From the NCBI RefSeq assembly GCF_016903815.1, contig NZ_CP069973.1: DNA of 64,000 bases; one strand, 5' to 3'. Below are positions 6,489 through 46,198 of this stretch, one piece after another. The notes beneath the pieces are model-generated. The model was not told where the DNA came from. It searched no databases and saw only the letters and a program-made list of their open reading frames with translations. This stretch comes from Escherichia coli (GTDB taxonomy: Bacteria; Pseudomonadota; Gammaproteobacteria; Enterobacterales; Enterobacteriaceae). The position numbers and the translations under genes are program-made. Positions within the stretch are counted from its first letter, which is position 1. The number at the start of each line of letters is the position of its first letter.

Positions 6489-7064
6489 TTAATGAATAAT
6501 GCTAGTGCCCATTTGAGTAATAAAGTGACGTAATATTGCTGGATGCCCCATCCAGGTAGTCGCGGTTATTAAATTACCATCCACAATGGCTTCATCATCT
6601 GCGGCAGTGACCCACTGGCCACCCGCCATTTCCACTTCCGGTTTTACCGTAAAATATCCCGTCAGTTTCCGGCCTTTTAATACCCCAGCAGCGGCCAGAA
6701 TTTGTGGGCCATGACAAATTGCAGCAACAGGTAATGTTAAATTCATCGCGTAATGCACGATATCCAATACTGACTTATTTAATCGCAAGTATTCCGATGA
6801 ACGCCCACCAGAAATATAAACACCACTATATTCCTGTAACCTTATGTCATCAAATGATGCAGTTAATCTAAAAAGATGTCCGGGTTTTTCGGTGTAGGTC
6901 TGATCACCTTCAAAATCATGAATCGCGGTTTTAATAAACTCGCCGGTACGTTTTCCCGGACACACTACATCCACTCTGAAACCTAACATGTTTAATGCCT
7001 GCCATGGCACCATGACTTCATAGTCTTCAGAGAAATCGCCTGTGATAAGTAATATCTTCTTCAT
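6489..7064 (-). CDS. DJ-1/PfpI family protein
   Basis: Start taken at MKKILLITGDFSEDYEV; conserved AICHGPQIL nucleophile-elbow-like segment. Confidence 0.5.
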   Translation of the reverse strand: MKKILLITGDFSEDYEVMVPWQALNMLGFRVDVVCPGKRTGEFIKTAIHDFEGDQTYTEKPGHLFRLTASFDDIRLQEYSGVYISGGRSSEYLRLNKSVLDIVHYAMNLTLPVAAICHGPQILAAAGVLKGRKLTGYFTVKPEVEMAGGQWVTAADDEAIVDGNLITATTWMGHPAILRHFITQMGTSIIH

Positions 7065-7074
7065 AAGCGGACTC

Positions 7075-7374
7075 TCAAAACTGGTTATCGTCTTCCTCAA
7101 TGATTCGCATGGCTTCATGCACCGCCGCGACTTCGCCAAAAATGGCCAATGTGGTGATATGCTGAGGGCAACTGCCAAAGATTTCTGATACCACCACATT
7201 GGCGCTTTTACTGGCTACGTCGGCATAAAAATAGAGATCCGGAACCGGCAGTATTAACAAACCAATGGCGTCGATGCGAATCAAATCCAAACGCGAACGA
7301 AACTCCCCGGGCATACGCCGTTTCAACATAGCCAAAATATCCGGGGTCGGTGCGTTTATGATTCGTTTTTTCAT
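7075..7374 (-). CDS. BMC shell protein, PduU/EutS-like
   Basis: 99 aa; pattern resembles circularly permuted BMC domain. Confidence 0.55.
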   Translation of the reverse strand: MKKRIINAPTPDILAMLKRRMPGEFRSRLDLIRIDAIGLLILPVPDLYFYADVASKSANVVVSEIFGSCPQHITTLAIFGEVAAVHEAMRIIEEDDNQF

Positions 7375-18357: not shown

Positions 18358-20145
<1,788 letters not shown>

Positions 20146-20979: not shown

Positions 20980-21114
20980 AAATACGCAGGCTTGGCACGA
21001 ACTTAAACAGAGCAGTAAAGTGGTAGACTGGCCCCCTGAATCTCCAGACAACCAATATCACTTAAATAAGTGATAGTCTTAATACTAGTTTTTAGACTAG
21101 TCATTGGAGAACAG

Positions 21115-21480
21115 ATGATTGATGTCTTAGGGCCGGAGAAACGCAGACGGCGTACCACACAGGAAAAGATCGCAATTGTTCAGCAGAGCTTTGAACCGGG
21201 GATGACGGTCTCCCTCGTTGCCCGGCAACATGGTGTAGCAGCCAGCCAGTTATTTCTCTGGCGTAAGCAATACCAGGAAGGAAGTCTTACTGCTGTCGCC
21301 GCCGGAGAACAGGTTGTTCCTGCCTCTGAACTTGCTGCTGCCATGAAGCAGATTAAAGAACTCCAGCGCCTGCTCGGCAAGAAAACGATGGAAAATGAAC
21401 TCCTCAAAGAAGCCGTTGAATATGGACGGGCAAAAAAGTGGATAGCGCACGCGCCCTTATTGCCCGGGGATGGGGAGTAA
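21115..21480 (+). CDS. insC: IS2 transposase OrfA (InsC)
   Basis: Starts [26 protein letters not shown]. Confidence 0.85.
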
Positions 21481-22343
21481 GCTTAGTCAGCCGTTGTCTC
21501 CGGGTGTCGCGTGCGCAGTTGCACGTCATTCTCAGACGAACCGATGACTGGATGGATGGCCGCCGCAGTCGTCACACTGATGATACGGATGTGCTTCTCC
21601 GTATACACCATGTTATCGGAGAGCTGCCCACGTATGGTTATCGTCGGGTATGGGCGCTGCTTCGCAGACAGGCAGAACTTGATGGTATGCCTGCGATCAA
21701 TGCCAAACGTGTTTACCGGATCATGCGCCAGAATGCGCTGTTGCTTGAGCGAAAACCTGCTGTACCGCCATCGAAACGGGCACATACAGGCAGAGTGGCC
21801 GTGAAAGAAAGCAATCAGCGATGGTGCTCTGACGGGTTCGAGTTCTGCTGTGATAACGGAGAGAGACTGCGTGTCACGTTCGCGCTGGACTGCTGTGATC
21901 GTGAGGCACTGCACTGGGCGGTCACTACCGGCGGCTTCAACAGTGAAACAGTACAGGACGTCATGCTGGGAGCGGTGGAACGCCGCTTCGGCAACGATCT
22001 TCCGTCGTCTCCAGTGGAGTGGCTGACGGATAATGGTTCATGCTACCGGGCTAATGAAACACGCCAGTTCGCCCGGATGTTGGGACTTGAACCGAAGAAC
22101 ACGGCGGTGCGGAGTCCGGAGAGTAACGGAATAGCAGAGAGCTTCGTGAAAACGATAAAGCGTGACTACATCAGTATCATGCCCAAACCAGACGGGTTAA
22201 CGGCAGCAAAGAACCTTGCAGAGGCGTTCGAGCATTATAACGAATGGCATCCGCATAGTGCGCTGGGTTATCGCTCGCCACGGGAATATCTGCGGCAGCG
22301 GGCTTGTAATGGGTTAAGTGATAACAGATGTCTGGAAATATAG
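21438..22343 (+). CDS. insD: IS2 transposase OrfB (InsD), DDE domain
   Basis: 301 aa overlapping OrfA in -1 frame. Confidence 0.85.
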
Positions 22344-22355
22344 GGGCAAATCCAA

Positions 22356-24123: not shown

Positions 24124-25356
24124 ATGAATGATAATTTTTTAACGGAGAAAGTCCTTACTGGAGAGAATGTTCTGCGTGCAGCAATTGCTCGTATTGAGTG
24201 GATTTTTGAAATATTTCCATCAGTTTGTCTCTCTTTTTCCGGTGGTAAAGATTCCACCGTGCTTTTCCATCTTGTGGCTGATGTGGCCCGCAGGAAAAGA
24301 CGTCGTTTCTCTGTACTGTTCATTGACTGGGAGGCTCAGTACCAGTGCACCATTGAACATATTCAGAAGATGCGGGAAATGTACCATGATGTGACGGAAA
24401 CCTTTTACTGGGTGGCGCTTCCCCTGACCACGGTAAACGGTGTCTCGCAGTTTCAACCGGAGTGGATATGCTGGGAGCCTCGTGTGACCTGGGTTCGCCA
24501 GCCACCGGAAGAGGCCATTACGGATATGGCGTATTTTCCCTTTTACCGGTATGCCATGACGTTTGAAGAATTTGTTCCGGCATTTTCTTCCTGGTTTGCT
24601 GGCAACCGGTGTGGAGTGGCAGTGCTGACCGGTGTCCGGGCGGATGAATCCCTCAACCGCTTTATGGGACTGGTGTCCCAGCGCAAACTGAGATATGCCG
24701 ATGATAAGCCTTGGACCACGGCATCGCCTGAAGGGTTTTACTACACTATGTATCCGCTGTATGACTGGAAAACTCGTGATATCTGGATATATCACACCAG
24801 AACCCGTGCCATCTACAATCCCCTGTATGATCTGATGTACCGTGCCGGCGTACCGTTACGCAACATGCGTGTCTGTGAACCTTTTGGTCCTGAACAACGT
24901 AAGGGACTGTGGCTTTACCATGTTCTGGAACCGGAAACCTGGGCCAGGATGTGTGAGCGGGTGTCAGGGGCTGCCAGCGGGGCACTTTATGCCAATGAAA
25001 GCGGGGCTTATTTTGCCCTGCGTAAGCGCATATCAAAACCAGCCCATCATACCTGGCGCAGCTATGCGATGTTTCTGCTGGATGTGATGCCGGAAAGAAC
25101 GGCAGAACATTACCGCAACAAGATAGCTGTCTATCTGCGCTGGTATCAGACGCGGGGCTTCCCGGATGACATCCCGGATGAACAGGAGAATGACCTGGGG
25201 AGCCGGGATATTCCGTCCTGGCGACGTATCTGTAAGACTCTCATAAAGAATGATTTCTGGTGCCGTACCCTCTCCTTCAGTCCGAACAAACCCCGGCACT
25301 ATGAACGTTATCTGCAGCGTATGAAAGAAAGGAGGAAGGAATGGGGGATTCTGTGA
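24124..25356 (+). CDS. ibrA: IbrA-like PAPS-reductase/DndC-like ATP pyrophosphatase family protein
   Basis: PP-loop SFSGGKDS near N-terminus; 410 aa; overlaps downstream ParB-like gene by 16 bp. Confidence 0.7.
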   Translation: MNDNFLTEKVLTGENVLRAAIARIEWIFEIFPSVCLSFSGGKDSTVLFHLVADVARRKRRRFSVLFIDWEAQYQCTIEHIQKMREMYHDVTETFYWVALPLTTVNGVSQFQPEWICWEPRVTWVRQPPEEAITDMAYFPFYRYAMTFEEFVPAFSSWFAGNRCGVAVLTGVRADESLNRFMGLVSQRKLRYADDKPWTTASPEGFYYTMYPLYDWKTRDIWIYHTRTRAIYNPLYDLMYRAGVPLRNMRVCEPFGPEQRKGLWLYHVLEPETWARMCERVSGAASGALYANESGAYFALRKRISKPAHHTWRSYAMFLLDVMPERTAEHYRNKIAVYLRWYQTRGFPDDIPDEQENDLGSRDIPSWRRICKTLIKNDFWCRTLSFSPNKPRHYERYLQRMKERRKEWGIL

Positions 25357-25979
25357 CACCGGAGATACTGAGCAACATGATTCGTCAGTACTTCAGCCAG
25401 GAACGACCAGAAGAAGAGGCCATACAGGCCCTGAATCATCTGCGCAGGGTGCTTCATGAGGTCAGTCCATTTGCACAGGAGCCTGTGGACTGTGTGCTGT
25501 GGGTGAAAGCAGATGAGGTGGTGGCCAACGATTATAACCCCAATGTCATGGCGCCGGGTGAGAAGAAACTGCTGAAACATTCACTGGAGCAGGATGGGTT
25601 CACGCAGCCTGTGGTTGTCTCGGAAGAGAAGGAGCATTATCTGGTCGTGGATGGTTTTCATCGTCAATTACTGGGCAGGGAAGCAGGTACGGGAAAACGC
25701 CTGAAGGGCTGGTTGCCAGTGACCTGTATTAATCCGGAAAGAAAGGGACAGGCCTCACGTATTGCTGCAACCATTAGACATAACCGGGCCAGGGGGAAGC
25801 ACCAGATAACTTCAATGTCTGATATTGTCAGGGACCTGTCGCGGCTGGGCTGGACGGATGAACGTATTGGTACGGAGCTGGGTATGGACCAGGATGAAGT
25901 TCTCAGGTTGAAACAGATTAGCGGGCTGACGGAGCTGTTTCTGGAAGAGGATTTCAGTCCGGCATGGACGATTCGCTGA
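25341..25979 (+). CDS. ibrB: IbrB-like ParB/sulfiredoxin-fold (DGQHR-like) protein
   Basis: VVDGFHRQ motif (DGQHR-like) in a 212-aa ORF. Confidence 0.65.
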   Translation: MGDSVTPEILSNMIRQYFSQERPEEEAIQALNHLRRVLHEVSPFAQEPVDCVLWVKADEVVANDYNPNVMAPGEKKLLKHSLEQDGFTQPVVVSEEKEHYLVVDGFHRQLLGREAGTGKRLKGWLPVTCINPERKGQASRIAATIRHNRARGKHQITSMSDIVRDLSRLGWTDERIGTELGMDQDEVLRLKQISGLTELFLEEDFSPAWTIR

Positions 25980-26018
25980 GACCGTCATATATGTATATTA
26001 TTTCAGTGAGTTAATGTT

Positions 26019-26327
26019 TTGAGCAGGAAAAAGAGTACCCCGGAAGTCGTGGAATACATGGTTGCACAGAAGCTGGAGGCTGCGGGTTGCTGGCGCAGAG
26101 CTTCCGCCCGCTGGCTTTTTGTTATGGGAAATGTTGAATGTACAGAAGCACAACGGGAGTGGTTGTTGTTGCGCAGGAATTATTGCCTGGCGCAGATATC
26201 GTCCCCGCCGCTACCTGAAAAGCTGGATATCAGCGAAGTGGCGAAAGCTGCAGATGCCACGCTGAGGCGAATGGGGATTGCCAGTCCGTCCGGGGAGGTA
26301 TTCAGAAAAGGTACACCGGTCTGTTGA
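26019..26327 (+). CDS. PerC-family transcriptional regulator homolog
   Basis: LEAAGCWRRASARW segment resembles PerC/Pch family. Confidence 0.5.
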   Translation: MSRKKSTPEVVEYMVAQKLEAAGCWRRASARWLFVMGNVECTEAQREWLLLRRNYCLAQISSPPLPEKLDISEVAKAADATLRRMGIASPSGEVFRKGTPVC

Positions 26328-26992: not shown

Positions 26993-27427
26993 AACATGTC
27001 GGAGTAATTTTTCTATATATTAAAAAAACAGGTTTGTATTACCATAAAGGAGATCGGTGAATAACCGTTATTGGATGATCTCCTTCCATAAAAATACGCG
27101 CAATCTAACGGTTCGCTCTGTGCCAAAAAAAGACATTGCTCACAATATCGAGTTAATCATTCGGCCGTTGAACATTCCCATTGAAAAATTTCTCAGTATA
27201 GAATATACCAATGTTGAGGGCATTCCTCTTACATCTCGAAGGATAACTATCATGGGTCTAAAACCAGGTCCAAAACCAATTGCTAAGTCAACAGGAAAAC
27301 CGGATCAACGCCGACGCGATAATAAAGATACTCCTGGCAATACTCCGGGATTAAAGCCAAGTAAGTCCACAGGTAAGTAAAAAATAAGGGTATAAATACT
27401 TATTTATACCCTGACTACATATCCAGT

Positions 27428-28252
27428 CTACTGAAGGTGTTTCTGCAGCCAGATGCACGTTCCTTCTATATCATACGCCTGTGCCCCATACCCTTTAGCA
27501 AGCAAAGTCTCTGGTAAATACTCGTCATATTTATCCAGATACTTGTCGGGAACAACTGCAGCAAGCTCAAACTCTGAAGGTAGCCCCGACAATAGCATTT
27601 TCTTAAGTGCACGCTGGACAGAGGCAACGCCTGAGTCCTCTACCTCTATCACACCTGCAAATGAACTGGCTTTAAAGCCACAACGTATAATCAGGGACGT
27701 AATTGTATTGACAATTTTATCCCCCATCCACGGGATCACGTAGCAGTTCTGACCACTGGCAATAAAACAGTCATTTTGTAGATTGTAGCGTTGGAAGTTG
27801 TCACTTCCTTCCGCGAAGAGGCTTCTGGCTGCGGCATCAGCATAATCGACTCTCTTGTTGCCTACCGCGATACGGTAATCATTTTCCCTGTAGATAGTGA
27901 GCATTTCCTGGCGAACAACATCATGAACAGACATCCCGGTACCACTGAATAGTGGCGGCTGACCGCCTTTAGTCGTCTCAACATAGATAACCTTTTTTTC
28001 AACCTCGATCTCTGTCACTTTCCAGCGCCGTCCGCCGAAGATGATGTGCTGCTCCGGCAAAAGTGGGGAGTCTACAGGCACTGTGCCAAGAGTTCGGTTT
28101 CCCGTTACAATGCGAAACTCCTCAGGTGTATTGAATACGGCATAAAACGTGTAGTGATTAGTCAGCTTCTCCCCCTCAGCCCCGACAACTATTTCACCGC
28201 TGGTTAGTTGAGTGAGCAGTACGGGGTCGGACCGGTATGCAGCGAACTGCAT
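27428..28252 (-). CDS. Hypothetical protein abutting an IS junction (possibly N-terminally truncated)
   Basis: 274-aa ORF whose 5' end overlaps the start of the IS3-family OrfB frame on the opposite strand. Confidence 0.4.
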   Translation of the reverse strand: MQFAAYRSDPVLLTQLTSGEIVVGAEGEKLTNHYTFYAVFNTPEEFRIVTGNRTLGTVPVDSPLLPEQHIIFGGRRWKVTEIEVEKKVIYVETTKGGQPPLFSGTGMSVHDVVRQEMLTIYRENDYRIAVGNKRVDYADAAARSLFAEGSDNFQRYNLQNDCFIASGQNCYVIPWMGDKIVNTITSLIIRCGFKASSFAGVIEVEDSGVASVQRALKKMLLSGLPSEFELAAVVPDKYLDKYDEYLPETLLAKGYGAQAYDIEGTCIWLQKHLQ

Positions 28253-28604
28253 ATTGCCCCGTCAACGTATTACCATTGTCAGCAACAGCGACATCATCCG
28301 GATAAACGCAGTGCCCGTGTGCAGCACGATGACTGGCTGAAGAGAGAGATACAGCGCGTATACGATGAAAATCATCAGGTGTACGGTGTGCGTAAAGTCT
28401 GGCGTCAGTTGTTACGGGAAGGAATCAGGGTGGCCAGATGTACAGTGGCGCGCCTCATGGCGGTTATGGGACTTGCCGGTGTTCTCCGGGGTAAAAAGGT
28501 CCGTACGACCATCAGCCGGAAAGCCGTTGCCGCAGGCGACCGCGTAAACCGTCAGTTCGTGGCAGAACGTCCTGACCAGTTGTGGGTGGCTGATTTTACT
28601 TACG
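28208..28604 (+). CDS. IS3-family transposase OrfB, 5' exon
   Basis: Ends ...ERPDQLWVADFTY just before GTGTG. Confidence 0.6.
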
Positions 28605-31347
<2,743 letters not shown>

Positions 31348-31389
31348 GTTCACAGATAAAACACTCTCCAGGAAACCCGGGGCGGTTCA

Positions 31390-31539
31390 TTCCTAAAAAG
31401 ACATGTCTTGCCCAATATACTCAACATGAACTAGATCTGGTTGCTGCTCAGCTAAACAACAGACCGAGAAAGACACTGAAATTCAAAACACCGAAAGAGA
31501 TAATTGAAAGGGGTGTTGCATTGACAGATTGAATCTACA
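31390..31539 (+). mobile_element. IS30 3'-terminal fragment
   Basis: Encodes ...[34 protein letters not shown] and ends in terminal repeat ...TTGACAGATTGAATCTACA. Confidence 0.5.
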
Positions 31540-44659: not shown

Positions 44660-45925
44660 TCACCTTTTCAGTGGATTGTTAACTTTTGCATATTCAAACG
44701 GACTGATACACTCCTCCCTGTTTGCATCCAGAAAATCTGCCCACCATTGCAGCATAAGCCGACGTTCTTCCAGATGTTCTGCTTTATGAATATACGCGGC
44801 ACGTACTCCGTTGCGCTCCTGATGACTCATCTGACGTTCAACCGCATCTCTTGACCATAAGCCGGATTCAATCAATGCACTGCACGCCATCGCCCGGAAT
44901 CCATGGCCACAGACTTCCTTGGTTGTGTCATACCCCATCACCCTCAGGGCTTTATTTACAGTATTTTCACTGATTGGTTTACGCGGGTCATGTGCACCCG
45001 TAAATATCAGACCATTTTCACCTGCCCATGTCTGAAGTTCTGTCAGTATGGCTACAGCCTGTTTACTGAGTGGCACAAGATGTGGTGTCCGCATCTTGGA
45101 GCCCCGGTGTGAGAATTTTACGCCAGGCAGAGGTTCGCGTTCGGCTGGAATAGTCCACATGGCATTGTCAATATCAATTTCAGACCAGCGGGCATATCTG
45201 AGTTCACTGGAACGAATAAAAACCAGTAAATTCAGCATAACGGCAAGCCGGGTGACAGGCTGGCCTTTATAACCGTCAATACGCGACAGAAGTTCAGGCA
45301 GGCGTGAAAGATTCAGAGCGGGGCGATGCTGGCGTTTTACCGTGGTCAATGCACCAGCCATATCCAGAGCCGGGTTATATCTGATGATGCCAGACTGTAC
45401 GGCGTAACGCATTACAGCAGATATTCTTTGCTGCAGACGACTAGCGATTTCATAAATTTGTTTTGCTTCTGCAGCACGAACAGGGATAAGCAGGTCCGGG
45501 GTATTGAGTGTTGTGATATCCCGGTTGCCGATAAAGGGGAAAACGTGTGTCTCGAGGCTTTTGAGTACTTTATCGCTGTGTGATTGTGCCCATTGTTTAT
45601 TACTGGCATGCCAGCGTCGTGCAATATGTTCAAAAGAGAGCTGTAAATCAGGGACTACTTTTTTAACTCTTTTCTGTTCGCAAGGGTCAATCCCCTCTGA
45701 AATCAGTTTTCGGGCCTCATCCCGTTTTGTACGAGCTTCGGAGAGAGAAACTTCTGGATACACACCAAGTGCCAGAGTCTTCTCCTTACCCAGAATACGA
45801 TAACGGAGACGCCAGTAACGGGAACCATTAGGATGAACCAGCAGGAACATGCCGGCCCCGTCAGTGAGTTTATAAGCCTTGTCAGTGGGCTTTGCAGCCC
45901 GGATTTTTGCGTCAGTCAGTGCCAT
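44660..45925 (-). CDS. int: P4-type tyrosine integrase
   Basis: 421 aa; C-terminal catalytic segment HGFRAMA...RQMSHQERNGVRAAYIH; sits about 200 bp from the 3' end of tRNA-Phe. Confidence 0.9.
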   Translation of the reverse strand: MALTDAKIRAAKPTDKAYKLTDGAGMFLLVHPNGSRYWRLRYRILGKEKTLALGVYPEVSLSEARTKRDEARKLISEGIDPCEQKRVKKVVPDLQLSFEHIARRWHASNKQWAQSHSDKVLKSLETHVFPFIGNRDITTLNTPDLLIPVRAAEAKQIYEIASRLQQRISAVMRYAVQSGIIRYNPALDMAGALTTVKRQHRPALNLSRLPELLSRIDGYKGQPVTRLAVMLNLLVFIRSSELRYARWSEIDIDNAMWTIPAEREPLPGVKFSHRGSKMRTPHLVPLSKQAVAILTELQTWAGENGLIFTGAHDPRKPISENTVNKALRVMGYDTTKEVCGHGFRAMACSALIESGLWSRDAVERQMSHQERNGVRAAYIHKAEHLEERRLMLQWWADFLDANREECISPFEYAKVNNPLKR

Positions 45926-46085
45926 AGTTCAGCCTTCTGAATGCGTTAAAGAGGGTATAAATTCTGTCGAACTGGGGTATGCCCACAATTATACCCACAC
46001 AATGAGGTTGATGTGGGGGGAATCTGGTTGAGTTCGGTAGAATTGATTTGGAGGCAGGACGCTTAAATCGTGGCGTCCTGGAATG

Positions 46086-46113
46086 AAAAACGGACCTCCG
46101 TGGAGGTCCGTTG
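46086..46113 (-). terminator. Hairpin terminator downstream of pheU
   Basis: CGGACCTCC-ACG-GAGGTCCG followed by T-run on minus strand. Confidence 0.5.
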
Positions 46114-46122
46114 ATATGAATT

Positions 46123-46198
46123 TGGTGCCCGGACTCGGAATCGAACCAAGGACACGGGGATTTTCAATCCCCTGCTCTACCGACTGAGCTATCCGGGC
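46123..46198 (-). tRNA. pheU: tRNA-Phe (anticodon GAA)
   Basis: Reverse complement reads GCCCGGATAGCTCAGTCGGTAGAGCAGGGGATTGAAAATCCCC...GGGCACCA, 76 nt. Confidence 0.9.

Follow-up and report, generated by a model that had tools for sequence, protein, structure and literature searches.

A minus-strand reading frame beside an IS629-like element in Escherichia coli is very probably a pseudogene remnant of the Shango helicase gene sngC

Within a 64-kb stretch of E. coli DNA (hereafter, the window) we analysed a 274-aa minus-strand open reading frame (ORF) that adjoins an insertion sequence (IS). The frame is very probably a non-functional remnant of sngC, the helicase gene of a Shango system on a tRNA-Phe island, produced by a microhomology-guided deletion that ran into an IS629-like element. 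Shango is a three-gene TerB/ATPase/helicase system whose protection against phages is modest, 10-100-fold, a figure that concerns complete three-gene systems (Millman et al. 2022, bioRxiv 10.1101/2022.05.11.491447; Johnson et al. 2022, bioRxiv 10.1101/2022.11.11.516204). A remnant of this nature is ordinary, belongs to a kind already known, and does not surprise a specialist. Its main value is for annotation: the appropriate label is a Shango sngC pseudogene remnant, in place of a hypothetical protein.

Identity of the reading frame

The ORF listing gave a 274-aa frame with an ATG start at 27428..28252 on the minus strand and, on the plus strand, a frame at 28208..28669 with a TTG start and an IS3-family OrfB-like translation. 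The first-pass annotation, made from the sequence alone, had described a 45-bp overlap between these two frames, which is indeed present at 28208-28252, and had not been able to place the protein in a family by eye. It is nevertheless classifiable as Shango SngC. The PADLOC SngC profile (PDLC03960) matched ORF residues 12-271 with E = 1.4e-71, with a weaker PADLOC match to the C-terminal part of BrxHI, a BREX accessory helicase (E = 6.7e-14, profile positions 437-691 of 698). The SngC match was confined to profile positions 468-719 of 720, so the ORF represents the last third of a protein of about 720 aa; the intact allele matches the same profile from 3 to 719 with E = 3.5e-278.

With tblastn, ORF residues 12-274 were found to be residues 470-732 of a 732-aa DEAD/DEAH helicase at 100% amino acid identity (263/263), the helicase being the E. 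coli SngC of a complete sngABC operon. Because 263 of the 274 residues match this C-terminus perfectly and the SngC profile recognizes them so strongly, the ORF is not a chance frame. PGAP, as used for RefSeq, labels the same stretch as an 'ATP-dependent helicase' that is incomplete and missing its N-terminus, which is to say a pseudogene. The remaining codons, 1-11, are antisense IS629-like orfB: in a three-way alignment of the window, intact sngC, and IS629, sequence beyond 28219 had identity to the IS and none to sngC. Both earlier suspicions, that the gene might be a truncated C-terminal fragment and that its first codons might derive from the IS, were therefore correct. The features of the ORF and its 3' end are as follows.

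27428..28219, minus strand: sngC remnant, codons 470-732 plus the stop codon (Shango SF2 helicase, Lhr/BrxHI-like), from blastn and tblastn against the intact locus of strain M217 (L002), PADLOC, and PGAP
28220..28252, minus strand: eleven IS-derived codons, MQFAAYRSDPV, beginning with a fortuitous ATG, from the three-way alignment
27387..27412, minus strand: terminator-like hairpin 16 nt past the sngC stop, between sngC and the convergent 107-aa gene, from a pattern scan (an 11-pair stem followed by a T-run; a consensus match only)

Searches of the 274-aa ORF against Pfam and NCBIfam returned zero matches, and neither collection holds a curated domain model for the C-terminal region of SngC. 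In particular, Pfam detected no SF2 helicase motor (DEAD/ResIII plus Helicase_C) in the ORF; both domains lie upstream of the breakpoint at residue 470. What is retained is the C-terminal part that follows the DEAD, Helicase_C, and winged-helix domains.

Intact Shango alleles and the missing parts

The first-pass annotation had suggested looking for an IS-free allele to see the full-length gene and its neighbours. Using megablast with the non-IS part of the ORF against 5,426 complete E. coli genomes, we found copies with 100% identity whose annotation is a full 'DEAD/DEAH box helicase', including in E. coli M217 (L002) and strain 1435 (L006), where the complete gene and its neighbours are visible. 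In both strains the 732-aa helicase is the third gene of an operon, after genes for a 769-aa TerB N-terminal domain protein and a 438-aa ATP-binding protein. This succession of TerB protein, ATPase, and DEAD/DEAH helicase is therefore the published Shango architecture. PADLOC recognized all three proteins of the intact locus (SngA, E = 6.7e-100; SngB, E = 8.7e-187; SngC, at the E-value given above), and Pfam assigned TerB_N/TerB/TerB_C to SngA and BrxC_BrxD to SngB. Intact SngC carries DEAD at 25-200, Helicase_C at 261-363, and a weak WH_Lhr match at 406-464. A full-length homolog beginning at the same methionine in a non-defence context, the refuting result named in the first-pass annotation, was not found, four of the six database hits of similar length having been traced.

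The intact sngABC operon belongs to a tRNA-Phe island, where an integrase is encoded upstream of it. On its 3' side are the same convergent genes as in the window, encoding 107-aa and 214-aa hypothetical proteins, PerC, an IbrB-like protein, and a PAPS reductase (IbrA-like). Besides M217 and strain 1435, sngA and sngB are also present together in a metagenomic locus (L010). Genomic-island families of E. coli in which SngABC Shango occurs together with apsAB antiplasmid operons, complete or truncated, have been described (PMC11096173, Nat Commun 2024, Fig. 8b legend).

None of SngA, SngB, or SngC residues 1-469 had a tblastn match anywhere in the 64-kb window, where only SngC residues 470-732 were found; thus neither SngA nor SngB stands upstream of the remnant as operon membership would entail. 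Unlike a working SngC, the remnant is without the DEAD, Helicase_C, and winged-helix domains (residues 1-469) and begins with 11 foreign codons, and unlike a Shango system its locus is without SngA and SngB. Lacking an ATPase/helicase core and its two partners, the remnant would be unable to provide Shango defence, judging from its gene content. Inventories of defence systems should accordingly not count Shango as present in strains that carry the sngC remnant.

The retained region was also compared with helicases of known structure. The best PDB sequence matches of full-length SngC were Lhr (M. smegmatis, 5V9X) and MrfA/YprA (B. subtilis, 6ZNP), both via the motor core only, and the fragment itself returned only noise against PDB sequences (E > 1). 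A Foldseek search with a structure model of the fragment produced no significant match; the similarity was marginal, too slight to show that the C-terminal region is homologous. The results are consistent with, and not proof of, an equivalence between the C-terminal region of SngC and the 'domain 4' that follows the winged helix in Lhr. In helicase phylogeny, SngC groups with BrxHI, DruE, and DpdJ.

The breakpoint lies inside the IS

The boundary of the remnant had been described as an IS junction. It does adjoin an IS, but it is not an IS terminus; it is a deletion breakpoint inside a 5'-truncated IS629-like element, which consists of the following parts.

28212..28219: breakpoint microhomology GTGAGCAG, 8 bp, common to sngC and to codons 8-10 of the IS629-like orfB, from alignment
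28220..28604, plus strand: first segment of the 5'-truncated IS629/IS1203-like element (IS nt ~410-795, 5' part of orfB), from blastn to L005, L003, and L004
28605..30874, plus strand: group II intron in the IS orfB, starting GTGTG, from Rfam and the interrupted IS homology
30875..31391, plus strand: 3' segment of the IS629/IS1203-like element with an intact right inverted repeat (...CCCGGGGCGGTTCA), from blastn to L005 1691-2216 at 95% identity

As a reference we used an uninterrupted IS1203 copy of 1310 bp (L005 905-2214). The element in the window resembles IS1203/IS629 (IS3 family, 1310 bp) at 95-98% identity over IS nt ~410-1310. A complete IS3-family element has two terminal inverted repeats as well as orfA and orfB, which a -1 frameshift links. 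The window retains the right repeat (31378-31391), whereas by alignment and blastn the left inverted repeat (IRL), orfA, and the first ~8-10 codons of orfB are absent from the window element, its homology starting at IS nt ~402-410. PGAP annotates the 28220..28604 segment as 'IS3 family transposase, missing N- and C-terminus'. The plus-strand OrfB frame appears to begin at 28208 only as an artefact of mechanical ORF calling: orfB of intact IS629/IS1203 starts ~27 nt further upstream, and that start (ATGCCACTGCTGGATAAGCTGCGTGAGCAG...) is missing from the window. Unlike intact IS629/IS1203, the element is without nt 1 to ~401-409 (IRL, orfA, and the orfB start), its left boundary being the deletion breakpoint, and for that reason it is immobile.

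The position of the breakpoint could be fixed closely. In blastn of the window against the M217 locus, sngC homology stops exactly at 28219 (L002 11982), where sngC codon 470 begins, and in the alignment perfect IS629 identity holds from 28212 on. The two overlap in GTGAGCAG, which in sngC corresponds to codons ~467-469, antisense, and which is part of a 25-bp stretch (28195-28219) with 19 matches (76%), so that blastn to IS copies reaches back to 28195. Relative to the uninterrupted IS1203 copy, the breakpoint falls at IS nt ~402-409 of 1310, inside orfB codons 8-10. Since IRL, orfA, and the true orfB start are missing and the breakpoint is inside orfB, the junction is not a transposition boundary. 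An exact 8-bp match would arise at a random junction with a probability of about 1e-4, from which we infer that microhomology-guided illegitimate recombination made the sngC/IS junction, probably as a deletion in a single step. The 8-bp match could in principle be a coincidence after a rearrangement in several steps.

A more familiar route would be transposition of an IS3-family element into sngC at codon ~470, with the N-terminal part of the gene lying beyond the IS. This is very unlikely. An IS3-family orfB does immediately adjoin the remnant, and IS-interrupted Shango loci are known, such as the operon of strain 22270 (H106) with ISEc52 inside it. However, no inverted repeat is found at the junction, which is at IS nt ~402-409, and the element has neither IRL nor orfA. 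Past the right end of the IS at 31391, moreover, the window continues with IS30, IS3-family, and IS1 fragments, an alcohol-dehydrogenase fragment, and an antiporter/decarboxylase cluster, with no sngC 5' sequence among them; nor did the tblastn searches find SngA, SngB, or SngC 1-469 elsewhere in the window. The internal IS breakpoint, the missing IRL and orfA, and the missing 5' part of sngC together contradict canonical insertion.

We therefore return to deletion, for which the following course of events can be proposed. The ancestral island would have carried, after the integrase, sngA (TerB_N/TerB/TerB_C, 769 aa), sngB (BrxC/D-type ATPase, 438 aa), and sngC, the last encoding 732 aa with DEAD, Helicase_C, an Lhr-like winged helix, and the C-terminal region. 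Beyond sngC there would have followed the convergent module of two hypothetical genes, perC, ibrB, and ibrA. Illegitimate recombination, presumably RecA-independent and guided by the GTGAGCAG microhomology within its 25-bp patch of 76% similarity, would then have joined sngC at codon ~469/470 to the interior of the IS629-like element, ~nt 402-409, inside orfB. Such a deletion would have removed sngA, sngB, and sngC up to codon 469, together with the left end of the IS and its orfA, leaving a stretch that codes solely for the region past the motor and winged-helix domains. A chance ATG in the antisense IS sequence would have extended this leftover to a 274-codon frame. The locus may thus be a clean example of how a defence system is lost on tRNA-Phe islands, by microhomology deletion into the interior of an IS and not by transposition. 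The deletion is recent, given that the remnant is 100% identical to intact alleles, and its lack of decay is consequently no guide to selection in either direction.

The IS is itself interrupted. Its homology in blastn breaks off between 28604 and 30866/30875, Rfam placed RF00029 (Intron_gpII) at 30788-30874 with 64.9 bits, and the intron contains an ltrA reverse transcriptase/maturase ORF (29261-30784 as listed; 29276-30784 per PGAP). This intron insertion is shared with IS629-like copies in other E. coli chromosomes and plasmids. Two IS629-like copies that retain orfA, one on an E. coli plasmid (L003) and one on a chromosome (L004), have the same intron (ltrA) at the same orfB site. The intron-bearing IS629 is therefore older than the deletion and circulates as a unit. 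For the right-hand IS629/IS30 junction, 208 genomes had at least 80% coverage, but these counts join pieces of multi-copy IS30 and IS1203 and are hence uninformative about the progenitor.

Distribution among E. coli genomes

A 141-bp probe spanning the junction matched 88 of 5,426 complete E. coli genomes at 100% identity, among them TCM3e1 and ST648, whose right-hand context agrees with that of the window. At least 80% of the sngABC operon was present in 443 of the 5,426. This recurrence also bears on whether the junction is an artefact, a chimeric contig having fused an IS copy to the 3' end of a helicase gene. Regions rich in IS are prone to misassembly and the window holds many IS fragments, but the identical junction, at 100% identity, recurs in all 88 of these independently finished genomes, with matching flanks in Swedish and Chinese strains. 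Such recurrence across independent complete assemblies contradicts misassembly, the chance of which we consider negligible.

The deletion in the window is one of several truncated forms of Shango. In ~237 complete E. coli genomes the match was limited to the final ~200 bp of the query (90-95% identity). One of them, ATCC 11775 (L013, NZ_CP033092.2), was inspected and has a 93-nt sngC stub at 7002-7094 comprising the last ~30 codons, which adjoins a different transposase fragment and then the same module of two hypothetical genes, PerC, IbrB, and IbrA. As this stub and the window junction were cut at different points, there have been at least two independent truncations of Shango at the island. 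Other partial or IS-disrupted forms exist as well, that of strain 22270 being an example.

Could the fragment act alone?

We considered whether the start codon given by the IS creates an expressed, stand-alone protein from the C-terminal domain of SngC, which might bind nucleic acid or serve as a decoy or dominant-negative against SngA/SngB of incoming Shango-bearing elements. If this were so, selection and not recency would account for the persistence of the allele in several pathogenic E. coli lineages. The 274-aa frame is intact, with an ATG preceded by a weak G-rich SD-like stretch (GGGG, 4 nt spacer), and it could possibly be translated given antisense transcription through the IS and intron. 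However, no promoter-like (sigma-70-like) site was found on the minus strand within 450 nt upstream of the ORF. The retained region is conserved among homologs (27 invariant columns) and is predicted to fold, an AlphaFold2 model of the 263 residues having a mean pLDDT of 75 and values of 80-97 over residues ~100-260. In the same model the first ~32 residues (1-32) are disordered (pLDDT 25-37), as expected of a domain cut from its context. The junction allele does persist in 88 genomes of several lineages, but recency, not selection, explains why it is 100% identical to intact alleles. Overall, we regard a stand-alone product as highly improbable.

A search of a large protein database with the fragment returned mostly short proteins, six of which had lengths of ~267-275 aa and near-complete query coverage, as a stand-alone family would. 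Four of the six were traced, and all were artefacts or a remnant rather than true stand-alone homologs. Two are cut by contig ends (P0001 and P0011 start 14 and 43 nt from the end), and one (P0030) is an alternative gene call inside the 735-aa SngC of a full SngABC operon. The fourth (P0002) is another remnant, located on an IncFII plasmid contig with an IS5/IS903-like transposase gene on either side.

A conserved internal Met-Gly, at SngC M464 ('HMG'), stands just before the C-terminal region and was seen in P0001, P0011, P0018, and P0030. The contig-end and alternative-call proteins are similar in length because all start at this methionine, and the ~270-aa 'proteins' called from M464 on truncated contigs are a database artefact that mimics a stand-alone family. 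It is a remote possibility that M464 is a natural internal start for a short SngC isoform. In the window, the equivalent of residue 464 (~28235) has been deleted.

The P0002 locus (L007 8001-8807; GCA_902166905.1, contig CABHKM010000007.1) is IncFII plasmid-like and encodes a 268-aa protein with 82% identity. Its sngC C-terminal remnant has a foreign N-terminus, is flanked by two 326-aa DDE_Tnp_1 (IS5/IS903-like) genes, and was cut at almost the same place as the sngC copy of the window.

Island context

The island integrase and tRNA-Phe are at 44660-46198 on the minus strand. As in strain 1435, the island sits at the tRNA-Phe beside dicD/dsbD/cutA-type genes (the pheU side). In M217 it occupies the other tRNA-Phe, beside yqgA/speC, and the window integrase is only 93% identical to that of M217.

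At 21023-22354 there is a 1.3-kb insertion, annotated as IS2 in the identical strain 7/2, that interrupts a region with a degraded T6SS ImpA/VasL remnant; the otherwise identical islands of TCM3e1, ST648, and M217 are without it. A plus-strand gene at 18358-20145 encodes 595 aa annotated as a '3'-5' exonuclease'. It matches the PADLOC candidate C3a187 (NERD+UvrD) with E = 4e-140, has GajB-like helicase similarity, and may represent a further defence candidate of this island, consisting of one intact gene.

The plus-strand module at 24124-26327 comprises an IbrA-like PAPS reductase with weak BrxP/DndC similarity (E = 1e-7), an IbrB-like ParB-domain protein, and a PerC regulator. In all loci inspected, this ibrAB-perC module was kept beside Shango, whether the latter was intact, truncated, or nearly gone.
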